From a virus (lineage: Duplodnaviria; Caudoviricetes), in the IMG/VR virus record IMGVR_UViG_2840908651_000002, positions 298 through 64,297 of that record: 64,000 nucleotides of DNA; one strand, 5' to 3'. This document shows, in pieces, positions 24,119 to 62,259 of this stretch. The stretch's first letter is position 1. Every line of letters starts with the position of its first letter. The notes under the pieces are model-generated. The model saw only the letters and a program-made list of their open reading frames with translations, made no database searches and had not been told where the DNA came from. The position numbers and the translations under genes are program-made.

Positions 24119-24558
24119 GCGATGAACCCAACACACCCGTGATCGACCTCAGCTTGCGCCTCTGGCAGCGCACGCGAGGCGAAATCACCGTTATCGGGAC
24201 GTGGATACTCACGACCCGGCGCCCCTGCCTCGCGCTCGTGCCATCCCGGGCGCTGCCCACGCACGACCGGATCACGCCATGCCTCGTGCCGCTCGACATG
24301 GCCTTCGCATGGGACGAGCACACGGGCGATCCCGCCGACACCGCGGCGATGAGCTACCAGTTCGCCGCCGCTCTCGGGCTCAACCCGATGGAGCCACGCA
24401 ACGTCATCGCGGTCACCAGCATCGTGCGCGACAGCCTCGGCGATCTCCTGGCCATGCCGCCATTCCCCGAGGGAGAGAAGCAGGCCGTGGCCGATGTGCT
24501 GATCACCGATCCCAACACGGGCAAGACCACAGAAGCGGAGATCGTGGACAATGTTTGA
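24115..24558 (+). CDS. Hypothetical protein between terminase and portal
   Basis: ATG 24115 overlaps terL stop. Confidence 0.75.
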   Translation: MSDEPNTPVIDLSLRLWQRTRGEITVIGTWILTTRRPCLALVPSRALPTHDRITPCLVPLDMAFAWDEHTGDPADTAAMSYQFAAALGLNPMEPRNVIAVTSIVRDSLGDLLAMPPFPEGEKQAVADVLITDPNTGKTTEAEIVDNV

Positions 24559-29969: not shown

Positions 29970-30006
29970 CTATGCAGGTCGTTCAAAACCCGCATGAGGA
30001 AACATT

Positions 30007-31101
30007 ATGCCCCAGACCATCATCCCCTTTGGCGACGTCAAGGCCCAGAAGAAGTGGTCCTCGAACCTCGCCGTCGACGTCCTCCACAAGAGCTACTTTT
30101 CCAAGAAGTTCATCGGCAAGGGCGACAACAACATCATCGAGCAGAAGACCGAGCTTGAATCGGACAAGGGCGAGAAGATCAGCTTCGACCTGTCCGTCCA
30201 GCTTCGCGGTGGCCCGACGCAGGGCGATGCCCGCGTGAAGGGCAAGGAAGAGAACCTGCGCTTCTACTCGGACGAGGTCATCATCGACCAGACGCGCAAA
30301 TCGGTCTCCGCTGGCGGCCGCATGACTCGGAAGCGCACCGCGCACGACATGCGCGTCGTCGCCAAGAACCGCCTCGGCGACTACTGGTCGAAGTACATCG
30401 ACGAGCTCATGTTCATCTACCTTTCCGGCTCGCGCGGGATCAACGAGGATTACATCGAGCCGACGGACTTCACCGGGCACGCGGGCAACCCGATCCAGGC
30501 GCCCGACACCCAGCACATCCTCTACGGCGGCGATGCGGTGTCCAAGGCCACCATCGTGGCGGCGGACAAGATGACCCGCAACGTCATCGAGCGTGCCTGC
30601 ACCAAGGCCCGCATGATGCGCGCCCTCGACCCCACCACCGCGAACATGATGCCGGTCTCCATCGAGGGCGAGGACCGTTACGTCACGGTCATGTCGCCCA
30701 ACCAGGAGCAGGACCTTCGCACGGATGAAGGCAACGGCTGGCTCGACGTCCAGAAGGCCGCCGCTGCCGCCGAGGGATCGAAGAACCGCATCTTCAAGGG
30801 CGGCCTGGGCATGATCAACAACGTGATCCTGCACAGCCACGAGAGCGCCATCCGGTTCAGCGACTATGGAACCGGCTCCGATCTCCCCGCCGCGCGGGCG
30901 CTCTTCATGGGCCGGCAGGCCGGTGTCTGCGCCTACGGCACCACCAAGGGCCAGCGGTTCATGTGGAAGGAAGAAATGGAGGACTACGATAACGAGCCGA
31001 CCGTCGTGGCGGGCACCATCGTTGGGTGCAAGAAGACCCGCTTCAACGGCAAGGACTTCGGGATCATGGCCCTCGACACCTACGCCACCCCGGCTGGCTG
31101 A
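30007..31101 (+). CDS. Major capsid protein (N4-gp56 / DUF4043 type)
   Basis: TELESDKGEKISFDL..QL..., GKEENL....DEVIIDQTR, F.G.DFG. Confidence 0.92.
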   Translation: MPQTIIPFGDVKAQKKWSSNLAVDVLHKSYFSKKFIGKGDNNIIEQKTELESDKGEKISFDLSVQLRGGPTQGDARVKGKEENLRFYSDEVIIDQTRKSVSAGGRMTRKRTAHDMRVVAKNRLGDYWSKYIDELMFIYLSGSRGINEDYIEPTDFTGHAGNPIQAPDTQHILYGGDAVSKATIVAADKMTRNVIERACTKARMMRALDPTTANMMPVSIEGEDRYVTVMSPNQEQDLRTDEGNGWLDVQKAAAAAEGSKNRIFKGGLGMINNVILHSHESAIRFSDYGTGSDLPAARALFMGRQAGVCAYGTTKGQRFMWKEEMEDYDNEPTVVAGTIVGCKKTRFNGKDFGIMALDTYATPAG

Positions 31102-41507: not shown

Positions 41508-41545
41508 TGCTAAGGTGCGCGAGACATACCGCGCATGATGTGTGG
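41508..41545 (+). promoter_or_regulatory. Late promoter-like box plus leader hairpin (giant gene)
   Basis: TGCTAAG...CCGCGCA TGA TGTGTGG. Confidence 0.6.
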
Positions 41546-41574
41546 CCACCCTCCAACTCCGTAAGGGGAAAGCT

Positions 41575-44500
41575 GTGGCACGCAAGAACGTCTTTGCGCT
41601 CGATCCCGTCGAATATGAGCTTGAACGTCAGGAGGCCCAACGCCAGGGCCGCGGCATTTTCGAGGAAAAGAAGCCGAAGGCGCCCGCGCCCGCGCTCAAG
41701 CCCGACGGATCGCCGGATTACGGGCGGATTGCCACGGACACGCAGGTCCCGCGCAACCTCATCATTGCCCTCACCGACGCCGCCGGTCTCAAGAATGGCG
41801 CACAGAAAGGCGCATTCGCCACCGAGGCCGCCAGCCGGATCGGGCAGGAAATGGCCGCGGGAAAGGATGCGCGCGCCGCGCTGGCGTCCATTCTGGGCGA
41901 GGATGCGCCGGTCGATGACCTGATCAAGGCGGCCAAGGCCGTGCCGGAATACGACCGGATCGGGACCGAAGGGGACGAGGCGGCGCAGGCCGATCCCACG
42001 GAAAGTGGATCGGCGCTCGGCGATGCCGGAAAGCAGTTCGCAGGCGGCGTCGCAAAGGGCTCTGGCGCGTCGGTCGAGGGCTTCGGCCTTCTGCGCACCA
42101 GCCGCCTTTACGACCCGCTGAACCTCATCAACGACGAGGGCAAGGAGCGCGTCGGCGAAGCCACCCGATCCGTTGCCGATGCCATGCGGGAGTGGGGCGA
42201 GGAAACGCAGGCCGGTGTCAGCCCGCAAAGCCTTGAGGCCATCAAGGGGAGCACGCCCGATGGCGACCTCTTCAAGCCGTCCACCTGGTCGCTTGGGGAG
42301 AAGCCGTCGCTGCGCGGATACGCGATGCTCACGATGGACGTGCTGGGCTCGCTCGCCCCGGTTGTCGTGTCGTCGGTGATCGGCACGCCGGGCGCGGGTG
42401 CGGCGGTCGGCGGGATGCAATCCGGTGGTGCGGGCGCGGAGATGGCGCGCGAGATCGTCCAGAGCGCCGCGAAGGAGCGCGTGGAAGGCCCGGACGGCGA
42501 AATGATCTCGCGCCTCGAGGCCGACAGTTCCTATTACCGAGATCTGCGCGAACAGGGCGAGAGCCACGAGGTCGCGGTTCAGAAGACGACCGAGGCGGCA
42601 GAACGGCTCGCCGCGCTCTACGCCGCGCCCATCGGTGCGCTTGGTGGTGCATTCACCGGGACCCTTGTCACGGGCGGCATGCGCGGGCTGGCAGGGAGAT
42701 CGGCCGCAACGCGCGTGGGCGGTGGTGCCGCGCTCGGGGCCGCCGAGGAATCGGCGCAAGAGGTTGCCGAGGGCATGGCGGCCAAGGCCGGGGCAGGGCA
42801 GGCCGCCGGCATGGATGTCGATGTGACCGAAGGCACCTTCGGCGACGCGATCCTGGGCGCACTCGGCGGCGGCCCGGTCGGCGCAGTAGGCGGGATTGCC
42901 ACCGAGGGCCCCGCGACGCGAGACGAAGACGACGAGACCCCGCCACCCGCGCAACTGCCACCTCCTGACACACCGCCCCTGCCGTCACCTGAGCCCACCG
43001 GCCCCATCGGGCGGGCTGCGCAGAAGGCCCCGGGTATGCTGACCGGCGATTTCGAGGAAGGCACGCGCATCACGGTGCAAGGACAGGGGAGCAACCCGTT
43101 CGAGGCCGAGTTCGTGGAGGAAACGCCCAACGGCGTGCGCCTGCGCGACGAGACCGGCCCCATCCTGATCCCGCGCCAGGACATCGAGAGCGGCGCGGTC
43201 CAGATCGGGCAGGCCGAGCGCCGCACGCCCACCGGCATGTTCCCCGACATGAAGCCCGGGGCCGAGGTGGCGCTGCGCGACGCGGACGGGCGGGACTATA
43301 CCGGCGTGTTCCTGCGTGAGGATGAGGGTGGCGTTGCGGTGCGGATCGCGGGGCAGGAGATTACCCTGTCGCCGCAGGAGTTCGACGAGGCCCGCGACGC
43401 GGCGCAGCGCGACGAAACCGACGCTCCGAAGGAGGCAGAGGCGCAGGATCAAGGCGCGGACGAGGCGGGAGCAGCCATCGAAATCCCCGAGGGCGTGGAC
43501 CCGGGCGAGGTCGAGCAGATCGCGTCGGACCTGATCAACGAACAGGACATGGACCGCCCGAGCGCCGAGGCGCAGGCGATCCAGACGATCCAGCAGCGCA
43601 TGGAGGAAGAGCGCGCCGCCGAAGAGCAGGCGGCGATCCCCGGCGCGCAGGACATGGCCGAACAGGGCGAGGTCACGCCGCCCGATGAGGGGCAGGCACA
43701 GGGGGAGGTCGCCCCGGTCGAGCCCCAGCCGCCCGCGTCGGTCGAGGGTGTCGACCCTGACCTCGACACCCCCCAATCCCCCGAGCTTCAAGCGGAGTGG
43801 TGGAAGAGCCTGCCCCGTCTGCGCAAGGCGGCGAAAGATATCGGAATGACCAAGGAGGCGCTGGCCGACGAATGGTCCGACAAGGGCGCGCTCACCGCCG
43901 CCGTGGACGCCGAGCTTGGTCGCCTCGGCGACACCGCGCAGCAATCGGGCCTGTCCCAAAATCCGGCACAGGAGCCCGAGAACGTCGATGACATCGACGT
44001 GGACGCCCTGATCGGCCAGAACCTTGATGAAATGGACGCTGAGGATGCCGCGCTTGTGGGTGATGAAAGCAACACAAGCGGCGTTGTGGAACAGGAACAG
44101 GGGGAAGGTGAACCACAAACTGACGAGGCCGACCCTGCCGCCGACATCGAACAGGCCGCGCAGGAGACCGAGGAAAACCCCACGCCCGCGCAGGCCGAGG
44201 CCGAGAATTACAAGACCGGAAAAGCCGAGTGGCAGGGGCGCACGCTCTCCATCGAGAACCGCAAGGGCTCTATGCGCCGCAAGGTCGGCCCCGACGGCGA
44301 AACCGCGTGGGAGGTCGAAATGCCCGCCCATTATGGCCGCATTCTCAAGACCGAGGGTGCGGATGGCGATCACGTCGATTTCTACATGGGCGACAACCCC
44401 GCCTCGGAATCGGTCTGGGTGATCGACCAGATGGACGCGGACACGGGCCGCTACGATGAGCACAAGGTGATGCTGGGCTTCGACAACGCCAATGCGGCGG

Positions 44501-47500
44501 CAGAGACCTACATGGACGGGTTCAGCGACGGCAAGGGGCCGGATCGCCTGGGCGGTATGCGCAAGATGAGCGTGACCGGGTTCAATGAATGGCTCGAGGG
44601 CGACACGACCGCGCCGGTGACACCGATGGCGAAACGGCAGGACAAGGACGCGGCGCAGGCAGGGGATGACACGAACCCGAAGGGCCCGCGCGTTGTCGTG
44701 AACGAGGTGGGGGCAGATGGGCTGACAGAGAGCGAGCGCGCCGCAGGAAAAGCGCCGCTCGACCTTGTGACGGTCACGGACGTCTACGGCGACACTCACC
44801 GGGTCAGTAAACGCACGCTCGACTCGGATCGCCCCATGCTGCGCCGCTTCAATGCCAATGGCGAAGAAATCGACGGCTCGCTCCTGTCGCGCGATAATAT
44901 CGACACAGACGGGACGGGGGTCACTGCCACCTTTGCTGATAGCCCTGTGATCGGCGGTGGCCGCACAGCAGACAAACCCCTTGCCAGTGAAGCCGCGATA
45001 AAGCGTGCGATCAGAAAGCGGGGGCAGAAGGTCGAGGATTTCGATATTCAGGAGGTCAACGGCGGCTACCTGGGTGTTCGGAAGACCGGGTCAGAAGCCG
45101 CCGAGGCCGAGGCGGCGGGGTGGACCGAGGACGCCACGCCGCCTGATGAGCCGCAGCCGCGCGAAGCGGAAAGCGTTGACGTGCGGACACTTCCCGGCAA
45201 ACACGGCAAGGTGGACACCAACCTTGTGAAGATCAACATGCGGAAGTGGCCGGAGGGCTATGACGTAACAGGGTCATACGATATTCCCGGCTTTGCTGGC
45301 GGCACCCTTTCCACGCCTTACCGCCAGTTCTATCCCACCAAGCACGAAGCGGCGGCGGCAGCGCTGAAAATGAGCGTTGGCCGCAATACATTCCCCGATG
45401 AGCCCCGCGCTCCGTTCCCGACCCAAAAGCATGTGTCGGATGGAAGGAAGATTCGTCAATTCCTAGAAGAGTTGGCGACCCCGGAAGCGTGGGCCGCCGA
45501 GGTCGAGGCTGAAAGTCCAAGTGTATCGATTGAACAGGACGCGGAAAATCGCTCCACTTCGACCGGCGACGCCCCCGCAGAGACCGTCGAGGATATCGAC
45601 GTCGATGCGCTCATCAGCGAGAACCTTGACCAGATGGAGGCCGAGGATGCCGCCGAATCCGAAGCGTCCACGAGCGACGAGCAGCGCATCACAGACAGCT
45701 TCCTCGAGGCATTCCGCGCCGGGGAACGGTTCGCGCGCATCACGCAGGCCCGCAAGCGCGCGGGCGAGGCGCTGGGACGCGATATCGAGGTCTCGGATTT
45801 CACGATGCTCGAGGAAGCGATCGAGGCCGCCGTCGTCATGCGGGCGCGCGAGATCGTCGCGGGCGAGAGCGATCCCGTCACCGTCTATGCCGACCTTCTC
45901 GACCTCTACGACGCGCAGCCGATCCTGTCGGAGCGCACGCCCGAGAAGATGCGCAATCAGGCATATTCCACGCCCGCCCCGCTGGCCTATGTCGCCTCGC
46001 GGCTCGTCGGGATCGGCGACCGGACGCGCGTTGTAGAGCCGTCGGCGGGCAACGGGATGCTCCTGATCGAGGCCGCGCCCGAGAACGTGCAGGCCAACGA
46101 GTTGCAGCCGCACCGCGCTGCACAGTTGGAGCGCATCTTCCCCGGTTCCGTGAGCCAGGGCGATGCGATGGACATGACGGCCGCACCGTTCGACGTGCTG
46201 ATCACCAACCCGCCTTTCGGGCGCGTCATGAACGAGGACACGCGCCAGAAGAAGGAGTGGGCCTTCGGCGACACGGGCGTCAAGACCAAGGAAATTGATC
46301 ACGCGATGGCGTATCGCTATCTCGAACAGATGCCCGACGATGGCCGCGCCGTCCTGATCGTGGGCTCCGTGAAAAAAACCGGGGACCGCAAGAAGAATTA
46401 CCAGGAGCGGTCGAAACTCACCTTTTACAAGACCCTTTTCGACCATTACAATGTAACCGAGCACTTCACGGTCAATGGCGACCTCTACAAGCGGCAGGGT
46501 GCGGCATGGCCGGTCGATGTGATCGTGATCGACGGGCGCGCGCCCTCTGCCCGCGCCTATCCGATGGCAGAGCCGCCCGAGGTTCTTTCGACCTGGGCCG
46601 AGATTGGAAGGAAGCTGAACGATGCCCCTGACGTGGACACCACCGGGCGCGGACCCGGTGACGCAGTCGGTGGAGGTGCCGAAGGCGATGGACCTGACGG
46701 TGGAGCAGTATCACCAACTGGTGATGCAGCGGGTCAACCGGATGCGGGACGAAGCGACCGACCCAGCGGATCGCGCGGCACTGGCGGACTTTCTGTCGAA
46801 CCGGGGCGCGGAGCCCGCGGCGACACTGGTGGGGATGGTGAACCAGTTGGAGGAAACGGCCAACCTGCCGTGGAGCCTGACGCCGCCCCGGACGTTTCCG
46901 GTGAAGAAGGAAGACCTGAAACTGGAACGGATGGAGCGTCCGAACCTGTCGGCGTTTCTGAACGCCATCGAGAGCCGGGGGGCGTAGGGCCCCGCACCGC
47001 CGGTCAGGCGGCGCAGGAGGGCGTCCAGAAGACCGGCGATGCCGTGAAGGACGCCGGGGCCGCGATCAAGGCCATCCTCAACGCAAAGATCGACCCCAAC
47101 AAGACCGGGGCGATGGGTGCGGGCTTCCTGCAAGACGTCTACGAGCAGATCGAGCCGCACCTGAAATCCGCTTGGGACAACGTCACGGGCGCGGCCAAGG
47201 ATTTCAAGGAGGCGGTGGGGCTGTTCCTGCGCGCCGTGCGCGAGCAGATGGGCCTGACCACCGCCGAGTTGCGCAACCTGCAACCCTACCTCGCGAAATT
47301 CGTGGAAGACGCGAAAGCCGCATGGGGCAAGCCGAAGTCCGAGCGTGGCCCGGCGCGCGAGAACACCGAGGCCGAGACAGACTTTCAGGTGGCCTACCAG
47401 CCACGCTCGTCGGCACAGTTCCGGATCGGCTCCCTGGTCCCGCGCGCGATGGAGCAGGCCGCCCAGGAGGCGCTGGACAAGATCGAGGCCAAGCACGGCC

Positions 47501-50500
47501 CCGTTGACAAGTATGTCGCGAGCGAGCTGGGCTATGATCTCGACGACATGCTGGGCACGCCCGAAAAGAAGGGGTATTTCGCCGCCGAGCAGGTCGATGC
47601 GCTGGCTCTGGCGATCAACAACGTCAGTCAGGGCAAGGGCTTCATCATTGGCGATCAGACCGGAATCGGCAAGGGCCGGTTCGTGGCGGCCATGCTGCGT
47701 CATGCCGAGAAACAGGGGAAGATCCCGATCTTCGTGACCGAGAAACCCGGTCTCTATGCCGACATGGTGCGCGATCTGCGCGATATAGGCATGGCCGACG
47801 CGCAGGACGGGATCATCGCGACGAACAACACGCTCGACGCCATCCCGATCACGGGGCCGGATGACACCTTTACCAGGGCGGCACCGAAGGAGCGAAAGGC
47901 TCTCTTCAACGCGCTGATGTCGGGAAAGCTGCCCGAAGGCAAGCGGTTCGTGTTCACCACCTACGACCAGATGCAGACCGCGCAGGGCAAGTGGCCCGAG
48001 CGCGCCAACGCGATCCGCGCTGCGGCCCCCAATGCCGTCATCATCATGGATGAAAGCCACAACGCGGGCGGCAGCGCGGGCGCGTCCCGCAACGTGCGAG
48101 AGCCCGGCGCGATGCCGGAGAACCGTGCCGAGTTCTTCCGCGACCTGGTCGATATGAGCGCGGGATCGGTGTTCTCGTCGGCGACCTACGCCAAGAACCC
48201 CACGGTCATGTCGCTCTACCGCTCGACCAACCTGAGCCTTGCGCTGCCAGAGGGCAGCCGCATGGACGATCTCGGCCCGGCCATCGAGCGCGGCGGCGTG
48301 CCCCTGCAACAGGTGATTGCCAATGCCATCGCGGGCGACGGCCAATACCTGCGGCGTGAGAAATCCTTTGCCGGGATCGACTTCAACTTCACGCACGAGC
48401 TCGGCGACGACAACCCGATCAAGGTGGATCGGGATATGGCCATCAACGTCTCGCAGGTGATGGGCGAGATCGCGATGTTCGACTCCGAGGTCATGTCTGG
48501 CGTGCGCGAGAGCTTCATCGCGCAAATCCAGGGTGAGGGCCTGATGGCGGGCAATGACGGATTCGTCGGCCCGGATTCGATCTCCAAGACCAGCGACAAC
48601 CCGTTTGCGTCGAGCTTTCACAACCTCGTCAGCCAGTTCCTTCTCGGCGTGAAGGTGAACGAGGTCGCCGACATGGCGATCAACAAATGGAAGGCCGGCG
48701 AGAAGCCCATCCTCGGCGTGATGAACGTCAACTCGTCGGTGATAAACGAGTACATGGCCGTGAATGGCATTCATGAGGACGGCCAGGAGGTCGATCTGAA
48801 TTTCACGACCATCGTGGACCGCTACCTCGAGCGCCTGCGCCGCATCAAGATCGAGAAATCCGACAACACGCAGTTCTACTACACCATGACCGACGCGGAC
48901 ATGGGCGACGCCGCCGCGGCGGAAATGCGGCGGGTGCGCGATCTGATCTACAGCCTGCCGATCGAGGACATGCCTGGATCGCCTGTCGATGCGATGCTCG
49001 ACCGGATGCGCGCGGCGGGTATGAAGGTCGATGAGATCACGGGCCGCAGCACCGTGATCGAGGACGGCCGCCGCGCCACACGCTCGCCGGGGCAGGGCGA
49101 GAACAAGCGCCGAATGAACGAGTATAATTCCGGCGCGCTCGATGGGCTGGTGATATCGTCATCCGGGGCGACGGGCTTTTCCATGCACGCGACCGACGCA
49201 CCGAACAACGACGGCAAAAAGCGGCACATGATCATCGCCCAGCCCCATGCCGATATCAACGTGTTCATGCAGATGCTCGGGCGCATCAACCGCACCGGCC
49301 AGACCGTGTTGCCGGAATACACGCTCGCAGTCTCCAACCTGTCGCTCGAGCGGCGCGTGGCGGCGATCCTGTCGAAGAAGATGGCGTCGCTCAACGCCAA
49401 CACGACAGCCGCGAAGCGTGGGGCGACGTCGCTCGGCGATGGCGCGGATTTCATCAACGAGGTGGGCGATCACGTCGTGCGCCGCTACCTTGCCGACAAC
49501 AATGATCTCGCCATCAGGACGGGCCTTGTCGAGGGCGATGCCGACGGTGACCAGAACGGCAAGATCGAGGGCATTGCCAAGAAGCTGACCGGGCGGTTCG
49601 CGTTTCTGCACCCCGACGAGGTGGACCGGCACTACGAGGCCATCGGCTCGGCGTTCCGTGACTACATGGCGCAACTCGAGGTCGAGGGCAGCAACCCCCT
49701 CGAGGCGAAAACCCTCGACCTCGAGGCGAAGACCATCAGTTCTTTTGTGCTGTCCGAGGGTCATGGCACTGATAGCCTTCTCGATGCCGATCTGACGCTC
49801 GAGAAGATCGACGCCAAGAAACCGGGCAAGCCGTACACCGCGCAGCGTGTCGATGAGCTCGTCAACGAAGGGCTCGACGGCAAGACCCCGGATGCGTGGT
49901 TGAAAGATGCACAGGACGCGCTCGACGCGAAGATGCCCGCCTACCAGACCAAGCTCGAAGAGGACAAGGCGGATCGTGAGAAGAGGCTGGCCGCCGCGCA
50001 AGACACCGCGAGGCAGGCCGAGGCCGCGATCCCACGGCTGGAAGAATCCCTCGAGAAGGCAAAGGTTGCGCGCGACGAGGTGAACGCGGCGGACGACGAC
50101 GCCAGAAAGGCGGCGGCGGATGCCGTCAAGAAGGCCGACAAGGCGCTCTCGCAGGCGCGGCGTCACGTCACCAAGACCAAGCGGGACGTCGAGAAGGCGG
50201 CCGCGCTCATCGAGGACGTCGAAAACCGCATGAAGCGGCAGGAGCAGGCGGTCGCGAGCATCAAGACGGCGCTGGAAGGCGTTGTCCCGGGGGCGACATA
50301 CCGCATCACGACACCGTCCTTTGACACTCCGGCGGTGGTGATCGAGACCGATCTGTCCCAGCAGGGGGCAAACCCGACAGCGGCGGGCGCAATCCGCGTG
50401 CGCTTTGCCGTGGCCGACAACATGCGCGAGATCGCCTTCTCGCTCAACCAGATCATGAACCAGAGCGCCGAGGCGAACATCACGCCTGATCCCAACCTCA

Positions 50501-53500
50501 ACTGGAAACCGGCGTTCACGGCGGGGCAGAGCGTGTCGCGCGAGCAGCGGTGGATGGCGACAGGCAACCTTATCGCCGGGGTCGACCGCTTCAAGAACAG
50601 CACCGGGCAGATCGTGATCTACACGACCGCTGATGGGCGTCAGCGCACCGGGCTTCTCATGCCCAAGAAATTCGACCCAGCACAGGAGTTGGACAAGGAG
50701 GACGTCCGTTTCCCCGACACCGCGACGGCGGCCGCGTTCCTGCAACAGTATGATGCGGTTCTGAAAACCGCCGACAAGAACGTGAGTTTCCAGCAGGACG
50801 GCGCCGACTTCAAGCTCCGCGTGGGCAAGGCGCGGGGCCGGGCCTTCTTCTTGCTCAAGGCGGTGCAGTCCTACATCCGCGATTTCCGTGACACCGGGAA
50901 GGGCTATGTGGGCCGGATCAATCGCGGTGATCTGAAAACCGTGCTCGACATCTATGCCGATAATCTCGGGGTGTCCTATGTCGCTGACAATTTCAAGGAT
51001 GCGGCGCGCGAGGTTTCCGGGCAGGAAACCCCTGATTTCGAGGCCGGGGCGGGCAGCGAGGTAAAGGCCGCACGCGGGCGGCGCGCAGGCGCGGGGAGCA
51101 CGACCTTCACGGAAGAAGGCGCGCGCCAGTTGCGCAATGACCTCGAGGCCGAGCTTTCGCGGTTCGTCAAGTCCGGTCGGATAAAGCTGCGCCTGGCCGG
51201 CGGCTTTACATATGGCGGCTTCACTCTCGACGGGTTCTTCTACGACAACGTGATCGGTGTTGGCGCCAAGGCCCCGGAGGGGCCGATGGGCATTCTGCGC
51301 CACGAGATCATCCACGCGCTCCGCAGCAAGGAGCTTTGGGGCCGTGATTACGGCCTGTTCACCAAGGACGAATGGCGCACGCTGGCCAAGGCTGCCCGGC
51401 GCATCCCGCATATCCGCGAGCGTGTCGAGCGTGAGTATGCCGATCTGAACACCGCGGGCCAGACCGAGGAAATGATCGCCGAAATGTTCCGCGAGTGGAT
51501 GCAGGAGCGCGAGACGCGCAGCGAGGCGGGCAAGGCCCTCGACAAGCTGCGCCGGATCATCGAGGCCATCGCGAACGCTCTGCGCCGCAACGGGGCGAAC
51601 GAGGCCGCTCAGGTGATGGAGCGTATCCGTTCGGGCGAGGTTGGCGGGCGCGGCCCGGACGGCCCCGGTGGGCCAGGTGCTGGGGGCGTCAAGGCCAGCC
51701 GCCGTCGCTCCGACCCGTCATCGCCGCGCGGTGTGCCGCACCCCAAGCCCCGCCAGTGGCGCAAGAAGGGTGGTGACCTCTGGCGCGATTTCCTCTCCGA
51801 TGCGATGGGGGGCGGCCCGCTTGGTAAATACAACCTCCTGGCGCTTGTTCCGGGCCGACCGCTCTTTGAAGAGCTCGGGCGCAACCTGCCCGGCGCACAG
51901 ACCTATCTGCGTCTCAAGGAAAAGATGGACGCAATGCGCCAGGAGTGGCACGCCAAGACCGACACCGTGGCGCGCGAGTGGATCAAGCTGGGCAACCAGA
52001 ATACCGAGGCCAATGGTCGCCTCATGGACCTCATGCACCGCGCGACGCTGGCTGGCGTGGACCCATCCAGGGACTTTGATCGCGGCAAGTATGACGATGA
52101 TTTCGCCGATCAGCGCTACATGACGTGGCTGAACCTGCGCCGCGAGTTCGAGGCGCTGCCGCGAGACTATCAGCGCATGTTCCGCAAGGTGCGCAACGAA
52201 TACAGCAACATGGCCGACGAGTTCGAGAAGGCCGTGATAGAGAACATCCAGACCGCGCAGAAGGTCGCCCTCAAGCGCGCCCAGAAGGCCCATGACAAGG
52301 AAATGCGTCGGATCACCGACGAGGGCCTGACCGGGCAGGAGAAGCAGGACGCCATCGACGAGGCGAAGCACATGCTCGGCCAGGCGAAAGCCCGCATGGG
52401 CTGGGCGCAGAACGCGCGGGTAGCGGAATTGCGCGCGCAGTTCGAGTCCAACCGTCTCTCGGGGCCTTATTTCCCGCTGGCGCGTTTCGGCAAATATTTT
52501 GTGGCCGCACGCGACGAGAAAGGCCGGGTAGTCTCCTTCTCGCGGTTCGAGAAACAGCGCCAGCAGCGCGACGAGGCGAAGCGCATGGAAGCCGAGGGCT
52601 ACGAGGTGGAGCGCGGCGTGCTGGGCGAGAGCGACGCAGATCTCAAGAAGATGGTCGATCCGTCCTTCGTGGCCGATATCGAGAACCTTCTGGGGACGTG
52701 GGATGTGGACCCGGCCGTCATGGACACGGTCTGGCAGAAATGGCTGGAAACGCTGCCGGATCAGTCGATCCGCACCAGCCGCATTCACCGCAAGGGCCAA
52801 TCGGGTTTCAGCAAGGATGCGCTGCGCGCCTTCACCCACCATATGTTTCACGGGGCACACCAACTGGCCCGCCTGAAATACGGGCTACAGATGGAGGACG
52901 CGGTCAGCGACGCCTACGACGAGGCCGCCCTGAGCCGCGACGCGAACCGCGCGACGCTCGTGGTCGACGAAATGAACCGCCGCCACCAGTACACGATGCA
53001 ACCCAACGTCGCGCCGTGGGCCAGCGGGATCACGTCTTTGGCGTTCGTTTGGTATCTCGGGGCAACCCCGGCAGCGGCGATGGTCAACATGACGCAGACG
53101 ACCGTCATGGGCGTGCCGCTGATGCGCGCCGCCTTCCAGGGCACCAGCATTGGCGAGATCGGCAAGCAGTTGGGCAAGGCCAGCATGGATTTTGTGCAAG
53201 GCCGGGGGTCCGCCGACAACTCGCCGCGCCTCACCGAGGATGAAAAGGCCGCACTCGACGAAGCCTACCGCCGGGGCACGATCGACAAGACGCAGGCGCA
53301 CGAGCTCGCGAGTGTGGCCGAGACCGGGATCGAGTATAGCGGGACGCGCGAGAAGATCATGCGGTTCTTCTCCTATATGTTCCACAAGGCCGAGGTCTTT
53401 AACCGAGAGGTCACGTTCCTCGCCAGCTATCGCCTCGCGCGCGACAAGGGGCTCATGCAGGAGAAGGCCATCGACCGCGCCGCCTCGCTGACGTGGAAAA

Positions 53501-54540
53501 TCCATTTCGACTACCAGGGCAGTTCCCGCGCCCGGTTCATGCAACCGGATTTTGCGAGGGTGCTCCTGATCTTTCGACAGCACAGCGTGAACCTTCTGTA
53601 TCGCCTGTTTCGCGACACGCAGCAGACGTTCGAGGGCAAGACCGAGGCCGACCGGCGCGAGGCGAAAGCGCAGCTTGTCGGCATCACCCTGTCGATGATG
53701 GCGCACGCCGGGATCACCGGCACATGGGGCTACGGGCTCATCACTATGCTCCTGAGCATGTTCTTCCCCGGTGACGATGACGATATCGACGAATGGCTGC
53801 ACGACGCGCTTCTGCTCGAGGGCAACGGCATGGGCACGGCGGCGTGGAATTACACGATGGGCATGGCGCTCAAGGGCGTTCCCGGCCATGTGACCGGCGT
53901 GGCGCTGTCCGAGCGCATCGGTATGCCGAACCTGTGGTTCCGTGGGCCGTTCTACGACATGGAGGCCGCCGACACGTTGCAGCACTATGTCCACGAGGCG
54001 CTGGGGCCCGCGGCCAGCATCTTGTTCAGCATGGGGCGCGGTATCCAGCAGGTCTCGGAGGGCAACGTGTGGCGCGGGGCCGAGTCGATGGTGCCGAAGA
54101 TGGCGAACGACCTGTCGCAGGGCTTCCGCTACGGGCTCAATGGCGTTCAGAACAGCAATGGCGATCCGATCCTCGAGGACGTGTCGCCATACCAGGCCAT
54201 CGTGCAGGCCGTGGGTTTCACCCCGGCTCAACTGGCCGAGCGGTATGACGACATGAGCCGGATGCGTGACATGGAGCGCCAGATCGAGCAGGAGCGGTCC
54301 TCGCTGCACCGTGAGGCAGGTGATGCCGTCATGGACGGGAAGGGGCTCCCGCGACACGTCCTCAAGAAGATCAGGGCGTTCAACAAGGCGCACCCCACCT
54401 TCCCGATCACGGGCGACACGCTGCGCCGTTCCATGAAGTCCCGCAAGCGGTGGAGCGAAGGCGTTGCGGGTGGTATCAATATCAACCCCCGACTGCGCTC
54501 GCAGATCGAGGAAGGCATGGCCCCTCGCCTCTACGAGTAA
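41575..54540 (+). CDS. Giant polyvalent DarB-like virion protein: PPase-like, N6-adenine MTase, Strawberry-notch-type SF2 helicase, HExxH peptidase-like and PLxRFG domains
   Basis: GTG 41575 after AAGGGGA; ENRKGS.R..HYG....GADGDH.D..DEHKVMLGF; EPSAGNG, NPPF (46207); GDQTGIGKGR, DESHN, QMLGRINRTGQ; HEIIH (51301); PLARFG (52474). Confidence 0.9.
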   Translation: MARKNVFALDPVEYELERQEAQRQGRGIFEEKKPKAPAPALKPDGSPDYGRIATDTQVPRNLIIALTDAAGLKNGAQKGAFATEAASRIGQEMAAGKDARAALASILGEDAPVDDLIKAAKAVPEYDRIGTEGDEAAQADPTESGSALGDAGKQFAGGVAKGSGASVEGFGLLRTSRLYDPLNLINDEGKERVGEATRSVADAMREWGEETQAGVSPQSLEAIKGSTPDGDLFKPSTWSLGEKPSLRGYAMLTMDVLGSLAPVVVSSVIGTPGAGAAVGGMQSGGAGAEMAREIVQSAAKERVEGPDGEMISRLEADSSYYRDLREQGESHEVAVQKTTEAAERLAALYAAPIGALGGAFTGTLVTGGMRGLAGRSAATRVGGGAALGAAEESAQEVAEGMAAKAGAGQAAGMDVDVTEGTFGDAILGALGGGPVGAVGGIATEGPATRDEDDETPPPAQLPPPDTPPLPSPEPTGPIGRAAQKAPGMLTGDFEEGTRITVQGQGSNPFEAEFVEETPNGVRLRDETGPILIPRQDIESGAVQIGQAERRTPTGMFPDMKPGAEVALRDADGRDYTGVFLREDEGGVAVRIAGQEITLSPQEFDEARDAAQRDETDAPKEAEAQDQGADEAGAAIEIPEGVDPGEVEQIASDLINEQDMDRPSAEAQAIQTIQQRMEEERAAEEQAAIPGAQDMAEQGEVTPPDEGQAQGEVAPVEPQPPASVEGVDPDLDTPQSPELQAEWWKSLPRLRKAAKDIGMTKEALADEWSDKGALTAAVDAELGRLGDTAQQSGLSQNPAQEPENVDDIDVDALIGQNLDEMDAEDAALVGDESNTSGVVEQEQGEGEPQTDEADPAADIEQAAQETEENPTPAQAEAENYKTGKAEWQGRTLSIENRKGSMRRKVGPDGETAWEVEMPAHYGRILKTEGADGDHVDFYMGDNPASESVWVIDQMDADTGRYDEHKVMLGFDNANAAAETYMDGFSDGKGPDRLGGMRKMSVTGFNEWLEGDTTAPVTPMAKRQDKDAAQAGDDTNPKGPRVVVNEVGADGLTESERAAGKAPLDLVTVTDVYGDTHRVSKRTLDSDRPMLRRFNANGEEIDGSLLSRDNIDTDGTGVTATFADSPVIGGGRTADKPLASEAAIKRAIRKRGQKVEDFDIQEVNGGYLGVRKTGSEAAEAEAAGWTEDATPPDEPQPREAESVDVRTLPGKHGKVDTNLVKINMRKWPEGYDVTGSYDIPGFAGGTLSTPYRQFYPTKHEAAAAALKMSVGRNTFPDEPRAPFPTQKHVSDGRKIRQFLEELATPEAWAAEVEAESPSVSIEQDAENRSTSTGDAPAETVEDIDVDALISENLDQMEAEDAAESEASTSDEQRITDSFLEAFRAGERFARITQARKRAGEALGRDIEVSDFTMLEEAIEAAVVMRAREIVAGESDPVTVYADLLDLYDAQPILSERTPEKMRNQAYSTPAPLAYVASRLVGIGDRTRVVEPSAGNGMLLIEAAPENVQANELQPHRAAQLERIFPGSVSQGDAMDMTAAPFDVLITNPPFGRVMNEDTRQKKEWAFGDTGVKTKEIDHAMAYRYLEQMPDDGRAVLIVGSVKKTGDRKKNYQERSKLTFYKTLFDHYNVTEHFTVNGDLYKRQGAAWPVDVIVIDGRAPSARAYPMAEPPEVLSTWAEIGRKLNDAPDVDTTGRGPGDAVGGGAEGDGPDGGAVSPTGDAAGQPDAGRSDRPSGSRGTGGLSVEPGRGARGDTGGDGEPVGGNGQPAVEPDAAPDVSGEEGRPETGTDGASEPVGVSERHREPGGVGPRTAGQAAQEGVQKTGDAVKDAGAAIKAILNAKIDPNKTGAMGAGFLQDVYEQIEPHLKSAWDNVTGAAKDFKEAVGLFLRAVREQMGLTTAELRNLQPYLAKFVEDAKAAWGKPKSERGPARENTEAETDFQVAYQPRSSAQFRIGSLVPRAMEQAAQEALDKIEAKHGPVDKYVASELGYDLDDMLGTPEKKGYFAAEQVDALALAINNVSQGKGFIIGDQTGIGKGRFVAAMLRHAEKQGKIPIFVTEKPGLYADMVRDLRDIGMADAQDGIIATNNTLDAIPITGPDDTFTRAAPKERKALFNALMSGKLPEGKRFVFTTYDQMQTAQGKWPERANAIRAAAPNAVIIMDESHNAGGSAGASRNVREPGAMPENRAEFFRDLVDMSAGSVFSSATYAKNPTVMSLYRSTNLSLALPEGSRMDDLGPAIERGGVPLQQVIANAIAGDGQYLRREKSFAGIDFNFTHELGDDNPIKVDRDMAINVSQVMGEIAMFDSEVMSGVRESFIAQIQGEGLMAGNDGFVGPDSISKTSDNPFASSFHNLVSQFLLGVKVNEVADMAINKWKAGEKPILGVMNVNSSVINEYMAVNGIHEDGQEVDLNFTTIVDRYLERLRRIKIEKSDNTQFYYTMTDADMGDAAAAEMRRVRDLIYSLPIEDMPGSPVDAMLDRMRAAGMKVDEITGRSTVIEDGRRATRSPGQGENKRRMNEYNSGALDGLVISSSGATGFSMHATDAPNNDGKKRHMIIAQPHADINVFMQMLGRINRTGQTVLPEYTLAVSNLSLERRVAAILSKKMASLNANTTAAKRGATSLGDGADFINEVGDHVVRRYLADNNDLAIRTGLVEGDADGDQNGKIEGIAKKLTGRFAFLHPDEVDRHYEAIGSAFRDYMAQLEVEGSNPLEAKTLDLEAKTISSFVLSEGHGTDSLLDADLTLEKIDAKKPGKPYTAQRVDELVNEGLDGKTPDAWLKDAQDALDAKMPAYQTKLEEDKADREKRLAAAQDTARQAEAAIPRLEESLEKAKVARDEVNAADDDARKAAADAVKKADKALSQARRHVTKTKRDVEKAAALIEDVENRMKRQEQAVASIKTALEGVVPGATYRITTPSFDTPAVVIETDLSQQGANPTAAGAIRVRFAVADNMREIAFSLNQIMNQSAEANITPDPNLNWKPAFTAGQSVSREQRWMATGNLIAGVDRFKNSTGQIVIYTTADGRQRTGLLMPKKFDPAQELDKEDVRFPDTATAAAFLQQYDAVLKTADKNVSFQQDGADFKLRVGKARGRAFFLLKAVQSYIRDFRDTGKGYVGRINRGDLKTVLDIYADNLGVSYVADNFKDAAREVSGQETPDFEAGAGSEVKAARGRRAGAGSTTFTEEGARQLRNDLEAELSRFVKSGRIKLRLAGGFTYGGFTLDGFFYDNVIGVGAKAPEGPMGILRHEIIHALRSKELWGRDYGLFTKDEWRTLAKAARRIPHIRERVEREYADLNTAGQTEEMIAEMFREWMQERETRSEAGKALDKLRRIIEAIANALRRNGANEAAQVMERIRSGEVGGRGPDGPGGPGAGGVKASRRRSDPSSPRGVPHPKPRQWRKKGGDLWRDFLSDAMGGGPLGKYNLLALVPGRPLFEELGRNLPGAQTYLRLKEKMDAMRQEWHAKTDTVAREWIKLGNQNTEANGRLMDLMHRATLAGVDPSRDFDRGKYDDDFADQRYMTWLNLRREFEALPRDYQRMFRKVRNEYSNMADEFEKAVIENIQTAQKVALKRAQKAHDKEMRRITDEGLTGQEKQDAIDEAKHMLGQAKARMGWAQNARVAELRAQFESNRLSGPYFPLARFGKYFVAARDEKGRVVSFSRFEKQRQQRDEAKRMEAEGYEVERGVLGESDADLKKMVDPSFVADIENLLGTWDVDPAVMDTVWQKWLETLPDQSIRTSRIHRKGQSGFSKDALRAFTHHMFHGAHQLARLKYGLQMEDAVSDAYDEAALSRDANRATLVVDEMNRRHQYTMQPNVAPWASGITSLAFVWYLGATPAAAMVNMTQTTVMGVPLMRAAFQGTSIGEIGKQLGKASMDFVQGRGSADNSPRLTEDEKAALDEAYRRGTIDKTQAHELASVAETGIEYSGTREKIMRFFSYMFHKAEVFNREVTFLASYRLARDKGLMQEKAIDRAASLTWKIHFDYQGSSRARFMQPDFARVLLIFRQHSVNLLYRLFRDTQQTFEGKTEADRREAKAQLVGITLSMMAHAGITGTWGYGLITMLLSMFFPGDDDDIDEWLHDALLLEGNGMGTAAWNYTMGMALKGVPGHVTGVALSERIGMPNLWFRGPFYDMEAADTLQHYVHEALGPAASILFSMGRGIQQVSEGNVWRGAESMVPKMANDLSQGFRYGLNGVQNSNGDPILEDVSPYQAIVQAVGFTPAQLAERYDDMSRMRDMERQIEQERSSLHREAGDAVMDGKGLPRHVLKKIRAFNKAHPTFPITGDTLRRSMKSRKRWSEGVAGGININPRLRSQIEEGMAPRLYE
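46622..46987 (+). CDS. Nested overprinted gene (+1 frame) in the giant protein linker
   Basis: AAGGAAG 7 nt before ATG; 104/121 codons end in G/C while host-frame GC3 drops to about 45% (hand count). Confidence 0.6.
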   Translation: MPLTWTPPGADPVTQSVEVPKAMDLTVEQYHQLVMQRVNRMRDEATDPADRAALADFLSNRGAEPAATLVGMVNQLEETANLPWSLTPPRTFPVKKEDLKLERMERPNLSAFLNAIESRGA

Positions 54541-59012: not shown

Positions 59013-59127
59013 ACTTCATCCCTGAAATCCCGAGATGGGAATACTGGAGACATAGGGAGCACTCTGTCCTGCCAGATGGCGAAATCTGCAAGGCATGGCT
59101 TTCCAGTACCTGCGGGGACCGTCAGCC

Positions 59128-60126
59128 ATGCCTAAGCGCCACGGAAACCTCTATGAGCACGCCTTCACGCTGGACCGGCTGCACGCGGCCTATCTGCGCG
59201 CACGGCGGGGCAAGCGAAAGACGCTGTCGGTCAAGCGCTTTGAGCGCGACCTTGGCGCCAACCTTGCTGCAATACATGATGATCTGACGTCCGGAGATTA
59301 CAGGCCGCAGCCCTATCGTCACTTTACCGTTTACGGCCCGAAACCCCGCCGGATCGCCGCACCCACGTTCCGCGACGTTGTCGTGCAGCACGCGATCTAC
59401 GCCATGATCAGCCCGATCTTCGAGGCGACGTTCATTGACCAAAGCTATGGATGCAGGGCGGGCGGCGGCGCGCACCGGGCCAGTGACTACCTGCAATCGG
59501 CGATGCGCGCCGCGCCCGAGGACGCTGTGCTTCTGCAAATGGATATCCGCAAATTTTACTACCGCATCGACCACGCCATCCTGCGCAGCCTGATCGAGCG
59601 CAAGATCAAGGACCGCGCCCTTGTCGACCTGATGATGCGCTTCGCCTGCGATGGCTCCGGCACCATCGGCCTGCCGATCGGCAACCTGCTCTCGCAGATT
59701 TACGCGCTGATCTATCTCGATGCGATGGATCACTTCATCAAGCGCGACATGAAAGTGAAGCGCTATGCCCGCTATGTCGATGACTTCGTGATCATCGCCG
59801 AGGATCGAGAGACTGCGCGGCGCATCAAGGGGCAAATCGAGGCATTCCTGTCTGATCGGCTGAATCTTGAGCTATCCAAATGGCGCATCGCAACCCCGCG
59901 CCAGGGCACCAATTTCGTTGGCTTTCGGACGTGGCGGTCCCGCCGCTTTGTGCGCAAGCGCGCGCTCTACAACTTCTCGAAGGCGCTTCGAGAGGGCCGG
60001 GTGGACAGCCTCACAAGCATCATGGGCCACGCGAAACGTACATCGAGCTATGCCCACATGGCGCGCCGCCTGTCGGCTGAGCGGCCAGACCTGAAATTGC
60101 CACGCAAGCTAGAGGCGACCCTATGA
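59128..60126 (+). CDS. DGR reverse transcriptase
   Basis: PKPR.I.AP.FRD.VVQHA, DI.KFY..IDH, GLPIGNLLSQ, RYVDDF, FVGF. Confidence 0.96.
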   Translation: MPKRHGNLYEHAFTLDRLHAAYLRARRGKRKTLSVKRFERDLGANLAAIHDDLTSGDYRPQPYRHFTVYGPKPRRIAAPTFRDVVVQHAIYAMISPIFEATFIDQSYGCRAGGGAHRASDYLQSAMRAAPEDAVLLQMDIRKFYYRIDHAILRSLIERKIKDRALVDLMMRFACDGSGTIGLPIGNLLSQIYALIYLDAMDHFIKRDMKVKRYARYVDDFVIIAEDRETARRIKGQIEAFLSDRLNLELSKWRIATPRQGTNFVGFRTWRSRRFVRKRALYNFSKALREGRVDSLTSIMGHAKRTSSYAHMARRLSAERPDLKLPRKLEATL

Positions 60127-60719: not shown

Positions 60720-61091
60720 ATGCTCTCAACAAAGGCATTTGCCTGGTCAAGCACGGCATTCTTCACCTGGGCCGTCGCGATTATAGAGACATACGGCTCA
60801 AGCCTGTTCGCCGTGGCGCTGGCCGCATTCGGTGCTCTCCTTGCGTCGGTAGAAGCCGAAACGCGGCACTGGCTCACGCGCTGCATGGTGCTCGTCTTCA
60901 ACTTCCTGACCGGCGTCATGGGGGGCGCGACGGTAGCGTTTGCTGTTCACGACAGAATGGGCGTCACGGCACCGTTCGTCCTGCTCCTTGCTTCACTGGT
61001 CATCGCATATGTCGCGCACGATGCGCTTGCTGGCGTGAAGATGGCCATCGCGTCGCGCGTGTCTCGCTGGCTTCGGGGGGGGCGGAAATGA
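60720..61091 (+). CDS. Putative holin
   Basis: Three to four TM segments, basic C-terminus, upstream of endolysin. Confidence 0.7.
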   Translation: MLSTKAFAWSSTAFFTWAVAIIETYGSSLFAVALAAFGALLASVEAETRHWLTRCMVLVFNFLTGVMGGATVAFAVHDRMGVTAPFVLLLASLVIAYVAHDALAGVKMAIASRVSRWLRGGRK

Positions 61092-61201
61092 AGAGGATCG
61101 TCAGATCGCATTTATGGCGTCGCGCGAGGGAGGTTTTCTCTGTTCTCTCGTGGCTCGCAATTCTGGGGTCGCTGGCCCTCATTTGGGTAGGGGGAAGGTG
61201 A
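61088..61201 (+). CDS. 37-aa single-TM protein (possible antiholin/lysis accessory)
   Basis: MKRIVRSHLWRRAREVFSVLSWLAILGSLALIWVGGR; ATGA/TGATG coupling on both sides. Confidence 0.55.
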   Translation: MKRIVRSHLWRRAREVFSVLSWLAILGSLALIWVGGR

Positions 61202-62259
61202 TGATAAAGCGCACCATCACGCACTGGACCGCCGGGGGTGGGCGCGCGTCGGCAGTGGACCTGCGCCATTACCACAGGCTCACCGAGTTCGACGGAACCT
61301 ACGTGAAGGGCAACGAGGCGATCGAGGATAACATCGTGACCTCGGACGGCGACTACGCGGCCCACACGTTGCACCTCAACACCGGCAGCATGGGATTGGC
61401 CATGTGCGGCATGAGGGGCGCGCAGGAAAGCCCGTTCGATGCCGGGCCGTCGCCCATCACCGAAAAGCAGTTCGAGCGCCACTGCGCTCTGCTCGCGGCC
61501 CTGCACATCGAATATGCGGTGCCGGTCACGCCCGAGACATGCCTGACCCACGCCGAGGTCGAGCCGCGGCTGGGCGTCAAGCAGCGCGGCAAGTGGGATC
61601 TGACGCGCGTGCCGCACCGGCCCGAGCTGCGAGGTGCCTTTGCCGTGGGCGATTACATGCGCGGGCGCGTGCGGGCCTACATGGAGGACATGACCGGCAT
61701 CCCCGATGTCGTGGCCAATCGCCCGACCTTGCGGGCGGGCGCGCGCGGTGAGTTTGTCCGCGACCTGCAAGGCCAGCTTCGCGACCTGGGCTACCCGCTC
61801 GGCAAGGTGGATGGCATCTACGGCGCGCGCACCCGTGACGCCGTGCTGTCGTTTCAGGCCGAGCAGGGGCTTGCCACCGATGGCGAGGCCGGGCCCCGCG
61901 TCTGGACGGCGCTGGAACGTGCCACGGCCCGGCCCGAGCGCGAGGTGACGGAGGCGGACCTGCGGGAGCGTGGATCGCAGACGATCAAGCGCGCCGACCG
62001 GGGCGAGAAGGCCATGACAATCGTGGAATCGACGGTCGCCGGCGGCGCGTCCCTCGGCGGTGTCATGGAGGCTGCGCGGGTGGCGAAGGATGCCGAAGGG
62101 CTGCTCGAGACCGGCCAGAGGTTGCTGCAAGAGTATTGGCTTCTCCTGCTGGTCTGCGTCGCCGCGTTCGTGCTGGCGCGCTACGGCAAGCGCATCCTGC
62201 GCGAGATCAAGGAATACCGCGTCAAAGACGCGCGTGAAGGAAGGAACCTTTCGCGATGA
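61201..62259 (+). CDS. Endolysin: amidase-2-like domain, PG-binding domain and C-terminal TM
   Basis: HWTAG, HYH, AAHT..LN..S.G, THAE, GKWD; LQ..L..LGY..G.VDGIYG.RT..AV..FQ...GL..DG.AGP. Confidence 0.9.
   Translation: MIKRTITHWTAGGGRASAVDLRHYHRLTEFDGTYVKGNEAIEDNIVTSDGDYAAHTLHLNTGSMGLAMCGMRGAQESPFDAGPSPITEKQFERHCALLAALHIEYAVPVTPETCLTHAEVEPRLGVKQRGKWDLTRVPHRPELRGAFAVGDYMRGRVRAYMEDMTGIPDVVANRPTLRAGARGEFVRDLQGQLRDLGYPLGKVDGIYGARTRDAVLSFQAEQGLATDGEAGPRVWTALERATARPEREVTEADLRERGSQTIKRADRGEKAMTIVESTVAGGASLGGVMEAARVAKDAEGLLETGQRLLQEYWLLLLVCVAAFVLARYGKRILREIKEYRVKDAREGRNLSR

Follow-up and report, generated by a model that had tools for sequence, protein, structure and literature searches.

The stretch analysed here (hereafter the window; 64,000 nucleotides (nt), positions 298 to 64,297 of IMG/VR record IMGVR_UViG_2840908651_000002, Duplodnaviria; Caudoviricetes) is a Roseovarius prophage, with 100% identity to a contig of Roseovarius nitratireducens TFZ, and its 13-kb gene for a giant polyvalent protein harbours a second, complete gene of 121 codons in the +1 frame, located exactly between the end of the DNA methylase domain and the region leading to the helicase. 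We consider this nested gene to be real and functional with a probability of about 0.85, and comparison with related sequences suggests that it is old, widespread and unannotated. In the frame of the giant gene, this segment would encode a disordered G/D/P-rich tether joining the DNA methylase and the Strawberry-notch (Sbno)-type helicase of a DarB-like methylase-helicase dyad, the composition and openness of which would be selected and the residues not. In the +1 frame, it would encode an independent acidic alpha/beta protein of 121 amino acids (aa), representing a previously unnamed family and translated from its own Shine-Dalgarno (SD) sequence and ATG, both formed by the codons with which the methylase domain ends. 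The arrangement would be an old one, common to phage contigs of 40-68% GC and to cyanobacterial plasmids. The features on which the analysis of this open reading frame (ORF) relies are the following, GC3 being the GC content at third codon positions and pI the isoelectric point:

41542-54540, plus strand: gene of the giant polyvalent protein, 4,332 aa (ORF list, translation and Pfam)
45688-46617, plus strand: DNA methyltransferase domain of the giant, residues ~1383-1692 (weak Pfam match, NPPF motif in the translation)
46594-46653, plus strand: block in which giant-frame synonymous variation is nearly absent and which contains the SD, the stop upstream, the ATG and the initial 11 codons of the nested ORF
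46606-46614, plus strand: Shine-Dalgarno-like GGAAGGAAG, 7-9 nt before the nested ATG, formed by giant G-R-K codons
46616-46618, plus strand: +1-frame stop codon TGA, one codon ahead of the nested ATG
46621-46989, plus strand: giant-frame linker over the nested ORF, a low-complexity tether rich in G/D/P/A/R, from the methylase to the helicase module
46622-46987, plus strand: nested gene, 121 codons (121 aa), +1 frame of the giant ORF 41542-54540, predicted alpha/beta fold, pI ~5
46651-46971, plus strand: anomalous giant-frame codon usage (change-point search), GC3 0.40 inside versus 0.85 outside, within the boundaries of the nested ORF
47632-49434, plus strand: Sbno-type superfamily 2 (SF2) helicase module of the giant (Pfam AAA_34, Helicase_C_4)

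A previous reading of the letters of the window alone (the sequence-only reading) had picked out this 121-codon +1 ORF, with its SD and its GC3 of 0.86, inside the G/D/P linker of the giant, and had tied an anomaly in giant-frame codon usage to its boundaries; both points are recovered here, the low-GC3 segment lying inside the ORF. The GC contents at the three codon positions (GC1/2/3) are 0.67/0.46/0.86 in the nested ORF and 0.68/0.46/0.82 in the whole giant gene, and among nested ORFs of 100 codons or more, no other in the window displays such gene-like values. Calculated over segments of 120 codons, giant-frame GC3 ranges from 0.65 to 0.91 along the 13-kb gene with a sole dip, to 0.47, at 46582-46941, and two G/P/A-rich stretches of the giant taken as controls (42622-42981 and 51502-51861) keep a GC3 of 0.75-0.82. 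The log-likelihood of the synonymous codons used in the giant frame is -1.67 per codon at the linker and -0.85 +/- 0.105 in 397 other segments, with a minimum of -1.23 among the latter (z -7.8), the codon choice of the linker being the least typical among the 122-codon stretches of the giant gene. A 687-codon antisense ORF (46711-48774, minus strand), which also overlaps the giant gene, is a typical artefact of high GC content and illustrates why the length of an ORF does not by itself count as evidence here.

Relatives of the nested protein were found at several levels. A scan of 1.8 billion representative proteins returned a relative of 120 aa, with 50% identity along its entire length (8e-26), and another of 128 aa, and a profile search extended the group to a nine-member family of 120-135 aa, all members of which start with MPLTWTPPG or similar; the member from Roseivivax lentus is on record as a 'hypothetical protein'. 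A 347-aa repeat protein (P0005, 9e-9) was rejected as a relative, its repeats matching 63 unrelated Pfam families. A metagenome contig (L002) encodes a giant ORF of 5,068 aa with a 135-codon +1 ORF in the same place. The giant genes of L002 and of the window differ at 61% of third positions, and third-position identity reaches 0.95 over the SD, the ATG and 11 nested codons, a value not exceeded in any of the 4,166 sliding 20-codon windows (mean 0.39, standard deviation 0.12). Moreover, another relative (P0009, 120 aa) threads onto a 4,963-aa giant (P0036) as a +1 ORF at 119/120 codons; the nucleotides of this locus, deduced from the two proteins with one inconsistent codon skipped, give a giant-frame GC3 of 0.40. 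Within the window's own clade, identity over the same columns amounts to 0.45-0.47 for the nested protein, 0.35-0.39 for the giant linker and 0.77-0.78 for the giant flanks.

The scan of IMG/VR with the giant-frame end of the methylase domain, which reads ...WPVDVIVIDG...TWAEIGRKLND in the window, retrieved 50 viral loci with GC contents of 0.40-0.68 and methylase ends 35-74% identical to that of the window. The giant frame is open through the spacer and a +1 ORF is present at the same site in 50/50 loci (L005 by eye); stops interrupting the +1 frame in homologues, which the sequence-only reading had named as evidence that would count against a gene, were not encountered in these loci. The +1 ORF begins ~94-148 nt after the WPVDV motif and is 92-167 codons long, 31 loci falling within 129-135 codons. 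Start signals were counted over 44 unique loci, including the window and L002: the start is an ATG in 43/44; 40/44 possess an SD core (4 nt or longer), spaced by 6-9 nt in 39/44 and taking the form of a perfect AAGGAG 6-7 nt upstream in 27/44; and 33/44 have an in-frame stop 1-2 codons ahead of the nested start, this upstream stop ruling out read-in from further upstream. The SD is formed by giant K-E-K codons in the relatives, with AAG and GAG retained also in loci that otherwise favour AAA and GAA; L013 keeps these codons though AAG represents 22% of its Lys codons and GAG 20% of its Glu codons. RNA structure around the nested start of the window is not significant (z 0.51), and the only match in Rfam is a chance one to a snoRNA (E 0.07, below the gathering score). 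Some 170 nt upstream of the nested ATG, the conserved methylase motif FYKTLFDHYNV contains a match to a sigma-70-like promoter (46424-46452, plus strand, TTTACA-17-TACAAT, 10/12; one found, where shuffles would give 0.1), which may be an internal promoter or a by-product of the codons of this motif.

The hidden Markov model (HMM) of the nine-member family matched the +1 ORFs of L003 (1e-25), L009 (3e-19), L008 (4e-16) and L048 (2e-8), and scored most of those of the main clade between 1e-4 and 0.05, the series passing by clear intermediates, with 0.09 for L027, 0.46 for L032 and 0.23 for the best of the reversed controls. A second, shorter +1 form (65-124 aa) occurs in L004, L005, L006, L007, L010, L041, L042, L045, L047 and L050; it is devoid of the N-terminal W-x-P hairpin and its members have in common a central '...Q.L(I/V)..N...L' motif and a hydrophobic C-terminal helix. 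In most viral loci (e.g. L013, 3502 onward) the nested stop directly precedes the N-terminal motif of the helicase, GL(K/T)DRRGQE-ET--QV-Y-PHS, and in the window, as in its close relatives, the nested gene and this motif are separated by ~120 additional helical residues (46990-47358). Contigs from four metagenome runs cover the nested ORF with 0-19 differences. Among the differences listed inside the ORF, two are silent in the nested frame, one is silent in the giant frame and one alters both, and the sole change in length among them is a 9-nt deletion at the end of the ORF (46987, runs X2 and X3), at the nested stop and linker end, which is a multiple of three and keeps both frames. Other searches were negative: tblastn of the nested proteins of the window (P0001) and of main-clade L017 against plasmids and phages, blastn of the start block against plasmids and an exact pattern scan of viral contigs gave no match, and none of the 91 pattern matches from a viral-contig scan with a 3-sequence nested alignment, the patterns of which were too narrow, was confirmed.

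Substitutions were analysed frame by frame, as the sequence-only reading had proposed, and the nested frame is constrained whereas the residues of the giant frame are not. Over 258 pairs from 24 unique main-clade loci, the nested frame has a median ratio of nonsynonymous to synonymous proportions (pN/pS) of 0.56; read in the giant frame, the same span gives 1.23, and the methylase upstream gives 0.21. The nested ratio is lower than that of the giant in 258/258 pairs, and the third position of nested codons is the most substituted one in 243/258. As the Nei-Gojobori method (NG86) is biased in overlapping frames and these pairs are non-independent, changes were also counted in 12 disjoint pairs: those silent in the nested frame and altering the giant were accepted in 286 of 2,746 possible cases (0.104), those altering the nested protein and silent in the giant in 173/3,448 (0.050) and those altering both in 319/6,115 (0.052), nested-silent acceptance being above giant-silent acceptance in 12/12 pairs. 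From these rates, the change of a giant residue is irrelevant to acceptance and the change of a nested residue halves it. The probability that the +1 frame is open by chance varies from 0.014 to 0.53 per locus (20 loci), with 0.015-0.05 in phages of 40-45% GC, and for the giant frame, with the nested protein taken as given, the corresponding probability is 0-0.052 (20 loci), with 0/3,000 simulations in 14/20. Traits of an embedded gene are found together here, namely a whole ORF inside another gene, its own start signals at the sequence level, purifying selection and a functional host frame. That a real gene is nested here, as the sequence-only reading had suggested, is borne out by the retention of the ORF (50/50 relatives), its ATG and its SD, by the nested pN/pS (0.56 vs 1.23), by the 12/12 disjoint pairs and by the confidence of the predicted fold (89.5, see below).

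The composition of the nested gene requires a separate comment. In low-GC phages the nested GC3 is 0.63-0.73 versus 0.25-0.35 for the GC3 of the phages themselves, which means that the giant frame imposes codons starting with G or C (Gly, Ala, Asp, Glu, Pro, Arg); the nested composition comes from the dual-coding constraint and not from host codon bias. The argument drawn from preferred codons in the sequence-only reading holds in part only: the GC3 and codon anomaly is present, but the gene-like look of the ORF is partly a high-GC coincidence, since low-GC relatives share the composition. As the composition is set by the dual code, codon usage is useless for deciding which frame came first, and a codon-usage test for the ancestral frame was discarded as uninformative, having given opposite answers in high-GC and low-GC members. 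In the close pairs L014/L016, L013/L014 and L011/L012, the nested region is far more diverged than the 300 nt upstream; between L014 and L016, pN is 0.073 and pS 0.252 in the nested gene, for 0.004 and 0.030 in the upstream methylase. This excess of divergence in the spacer points to fast evolution or to recombination confined to the spacer.

AlphaFold2 predicts for the nested protein four to five helices against which a small N-terminal sheet packs, with a mean predicted local distance difference test score (pLDDT) of 80.7 from 9 sequences and of 89.5 (predicted template modelling score 0.79) from 35, the five models all reaching at least 84.7. The helices named in the sequence-only reading coincide with those predicted at residues 27-44, 48-60 and 109-120. 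The conserved columns are core residues (W5, P7, V17, L34, R37 and some Leu and Pro) and the surfaces vary; no column of catalytic type, be it His, Asn, Cys, Asp or Glu, is conserved in the 35-sequence alignment. Over the 44 loci the protein is acidic, with a median pI of 4.45 and a median net charge of -8; that of the window has a pI of 5.0 and a charge of -4.

The giant itself corresponds to a DarB-like dyad, an N6-methyltransferase (N6-MTase) being followed by an SF2/Sbno helicase in one polypeptide. Its Pfam matches include InPase (6e-47), N6-MTase, AAA_34, ResIII, Helicase_C_4 and LPD39 (5e-59). The methylase part rests on weak N6_Mtase and UPF0020 matches (E ~7e-4, residues 1537-1607) and its alignment with 21 homologues (A6) has a mean column identity of 56%, and the matches of the helicase module span residues 2016-2631, with AAA_34 at 2031-2284 (4e-18), ResIII, and Helicase_C_4 at 2494-2631 (9e-17). 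The phage setting and the presence of further polyvalent domains (LPD39, InPase) fit such a dyad as well, and 608 plasmid records give the same two-piece methylase and helicase match as the giant.

The arrangement is also found beyond the phage set. Six cyanobacterial plasmids (H44-H49) carry a 167-aa +1 ORF with a GAGGA SD at the methylase-helicase junction of 'strawberry notch' proteins; these ORFs are 23-100% identical among themselves and one copy is matched by the HMM at 2.6e-4. In Picosynechococcus PCC 7002 the copy occupies 100513-101013 (minus strand) of plasmid NC_010480.1. A +1 ORF of 119 aa is present at this junction in Bacteroides phage BS-TP4 as well. An early idea that the ORF is an insertion, based on linkers ~90 aa shorter in distant plasmids, was dropped when the cyanobacterial plasmids were seen to carry the ORF. 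On the Xanthomonas citri plasmid NZ_CP020886.1 (L055, ~2300-2800), the spacer is an ordinary helical giant-frame sequence, …PPWEMTLREWDAALAE…; this PPWEMTLREWDAALAE faintly resembles the first helix of the nested family, and the family HMM gave it no score. The prediction that standard annotation would miss the gene proved right: the recorded proteins of the window genome include the giant and exclude the nested ORF, which is annotated in 0/6 of the cyanobacterial plasmid records, and the ORF of BS-TP4 is not annotated either.

Several observations weigh against the existence of a functional nested gene or against the role considered for it below. We infer translation of the ORF at the level of sequence. 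In the window alone, chance suffices to account for an open +1 frame (P = 0.38, with the giant amino acids fixed and the codon usage of the gene redrawn), and the frame-specific scores of the window versus L002, a saturated pair, are z ~2 in both frames. To the bias of NG86 and the non-independence of the 258 pairs is added that a nested pN/pS of ~0.5 indicates moderate constraint only. The short +1 forms (92-124 aa) are not reached by the family HMM, and their kinship with the nested family, like that of the ORF of BS-TP4, is hypothetical. The Xanthomonas plasmid homologue of the dyad has no +1 ORF, which indicates that the dyad can exist without the nested gene. Concerning the role, nothing meaningful was retrieved for the nested protein in Pfam, PHROGs, PADLOC or the PDB profile search, nor any usable match in the ESM Atlas, and no in-frame fusion of it to the giant was found among ~140 proteins >250 aa (mostly giants), bar one frameshifted contig.

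Three other origins of the ORF were weighed. A by-product of composition, in which a G/D/P linker with few T's at codon position 2 leaves an open, GC3-rich +1 frame that makes no protein, would agree with the chance openness of this frame in the window and L002 (P 0.38-0.40) and with the abundance of long spurious ORFs in high-GC genomes, such as the 687-aa antisense one at 46711-48774. However, it leaves unexplained the giant-frame wobble GC of 0.40 with its z of -7.8, the conserved ATG, SD and upstream stop, the openness in phages of 40-45% GC (P 0.015-0.05), the substitution phase of the nested frame in 12/12 disjoint pairs and the fold predicted at pLDDT 89.5; the conservation and selection tests contradict this origin, which we find hardly credible. 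The ORF might otherwise be fed by a +1 frameshift, or a genomic indel, and give a shortened isoform, reduced to the methylase and ending in a folded domain, as one could read from P0014 (317 aa, 2.5-kb public contig), in which the methylase end and ~60 linker residues run in frame into the nested C-terminal half and finish at the nested stop (HMM 2.9e-13, residues 250-314). But P0014 is a single short contig with the shift in mid-ORF, most simply an indel or assembly error, and an upstream stop (33/44), an ATG (43/44) and an SD at canonical spacing (39/44) would be superfluous for frameshifting; the N-terminus from Met1 (MPLTWTPPG, W5, P7) is moreover among the best conserved parts, and the start shows no significant RNA structure (z 0.51), no slippery-site search having been made, so this origin seems very improbable. 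The same low standing applies to the proposal that linker and ORF represent a ShiLan-type selfish element inserted in frame, which a methylase gene tolerates because no stop interrupts reading through it, and the out-of-frame ORF of which serves its own spread. This type is the closest published analogue and has the same architecture in the accessible part of its description (PMC11855218), the Xanthomonas plasmid homologue is without the ORF and the region diverges faster than its flanks; against it, no nuclease signature was found in the nested protein, which has no meaningful family match in Pfam, PHROG or PADLOC and no conserved catalytic-type column in 35 sequences, the ORF occupies one fixed site in 50/50 viral loci where a homing element would be patchy, its sole observed absence being in the distant Xanthomonas plasmid homologue, and the giant frame over it is kept open by selection.

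As to function, we tentatively favour, at somewhat less than even odds, that the nested protein works with its dyad, as an accessory subunit, assembly chaperone or auto-inhibitor, because its position between the two domains is fixed across phyla. In a possible mode of action, the acidic protein would cover a DNA-binding surface up to the moment when giant and DNA are delivered together, and nesting would guarantee co-inheritance and co-expression with the giant. Nearly as likely, if still doubtful, is a protein unrelated to the giant, i.e. a stand-alone anti-defence effector such as an acidic DNA-mimic-like inhibitor, which would use the tolerant linker as coding space; this competes with the functional part of our reading only. 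Its acidity (median pI 4.45, charge -8, 44 loci), the restriction of conservation to core residues (W5, P7, V17, L34, few Leu and Pro) with variable surfaces, and an evolution faster than that of the flanking methylase in close pairs (L014/L016), typical of arms-race proteins, would suit an effector of this kind, as would its residence in an anti-restriction module, the archetype of which is DarB of phage P1 according to the accessible text of Iyer et al. (2017, PMC5512222). A free effector would nevertheless be expected to move or be lost, and the methylase-helicase position is fixed across phyla. Strong acidity is shared with the DNA-mimic anti-restriction proteins Ocr and ArdA; likeness to them in sequence or fold was not found. 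A more far-reaching version of the partnership with the dyad, which we regard as speculative, is that the DarB-like dyad is a three-part machine, its third subunit being an acidic new-fold protein encoded in the +1 frame of the tether, predating the split between phages and cyanobacterial plasmids, and acting as a built-in partner or as an auto-inhibitor, a DNA-surface mimic released on delivery. If this were true, the region would be among the oldest and most widespread dual-coding regions known in double-stranded DNA (dsDNA) mobile elements, overlooked because gene callers forbid nested genes on the same strand.

Fully embedded genes with a functional partner have a precedent in phage lambda, where Rz1 is wholly embedded in the +1 frame of Rz and both products are functional and form one complex. 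The nested gene resembles Rz1 as a complete same-strand +1 gene with its own start, and the lambda complex is a model for a partnership with the giant. It differs in that the host is a 13-kb multidomain polyvalent protein gene with the embedded gene confined to an inter-domain tether, in that the host frame is unconstrained over the overlap (pN/pS ~1.2), and in that the nested family is unrelated, without lipoprotein or membrane signal or known fold, its interaction with the giant being hypothetical. In overprinted viral genes, one of the two frames is typically disordered, and documented cases are mostly from small RNA or single-stranded DNA viruses and lineage-restricted. The same asymmetric constraint is found here, with one frame folded and conserved and the other of low complexity and tolerant, but in dsDNA phage contigs of 40-68% GC and in cyanobacterial plasmids.

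Among cited systems, the ShiLan type consists, in the accessible part of its description, of an ORF for an HNH endonuclease, lying out of frame in an open-reading insert of actinophage DNA methylase genes, missed by annotation (PMC11855218). A phage methylase gene, an open host-frame loop and a hidden, unannotated ORF in another frame are common to both; however, theirs is a patchy homing HNH nuclease, as far as that source goes, whereas the present ORF has no nuclease motif, is found in 50/50 viral loci and is under joint selection with the host frame. The giant matches the dyad of PMC5512222, as outlined in its accessible text, by the succession of N6-MTase and SF2/Sbno helicase, by its nature of large prophage polyvalent protein and by the packaging genes nearby; a gene in the spacer of the dyad is not described in that text, which is without the words 'overlapping', 'frameshift', 'linker' or 'low-complexity'. 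No description of a gene nested in a polyvalent protein or a methylase-helicase spacer was found in the open-access literature searched.

The prophage also has, at one end, a reverse-transcriptase gene (59056-60126, plus strand; RVT_1, E 1e-17) lying between the giant and the amidase, for which a retron, a diversity-generating retroelement and a group II intron are candidate types, and the following features:

21495-22460: small terminase (Terminase_2, Pfam)
24503-26902: P22-type portal (P22_portal, Pfam)
29998-31101: capsid protein (Phage_capsid_3, Pfam)
C-terminus of the giant, plus strand: PLxRFG-type region (label taken from homologue names in source records)
61039-62259: amidase with peptidoglycan-binding domain, lysis gene (Pfam)

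Embedded same-strand genes are known in phages and few have comparative support. The nested gene described here has such support from more than 40 distinct phage contigs and several plasmids over a wide GC range, and reveals a hidden family, without relative in Pfam, PHROG or solved structures, inside a very common anti-restriction module of mobile elements. What reads as a 'low-complexity linker' in the giant would be the shadow of a folded protein in the other frame, and mutations or truncations of the 'linker' in such proteins would also hit the second gene. The combination of a dip in wobble GC, a local peak of synonymous conservation and an SD and ATG following a stop provides a recipe for scanning other giant phage proteins, and the PCC 7002 plasmid copy, in a model cyanobacterium, is convenient for testing expression. 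Should the nested protein turn out to act on the dyad as a partner or an inhibitor, the view of DarB-like anti-restriction would change.

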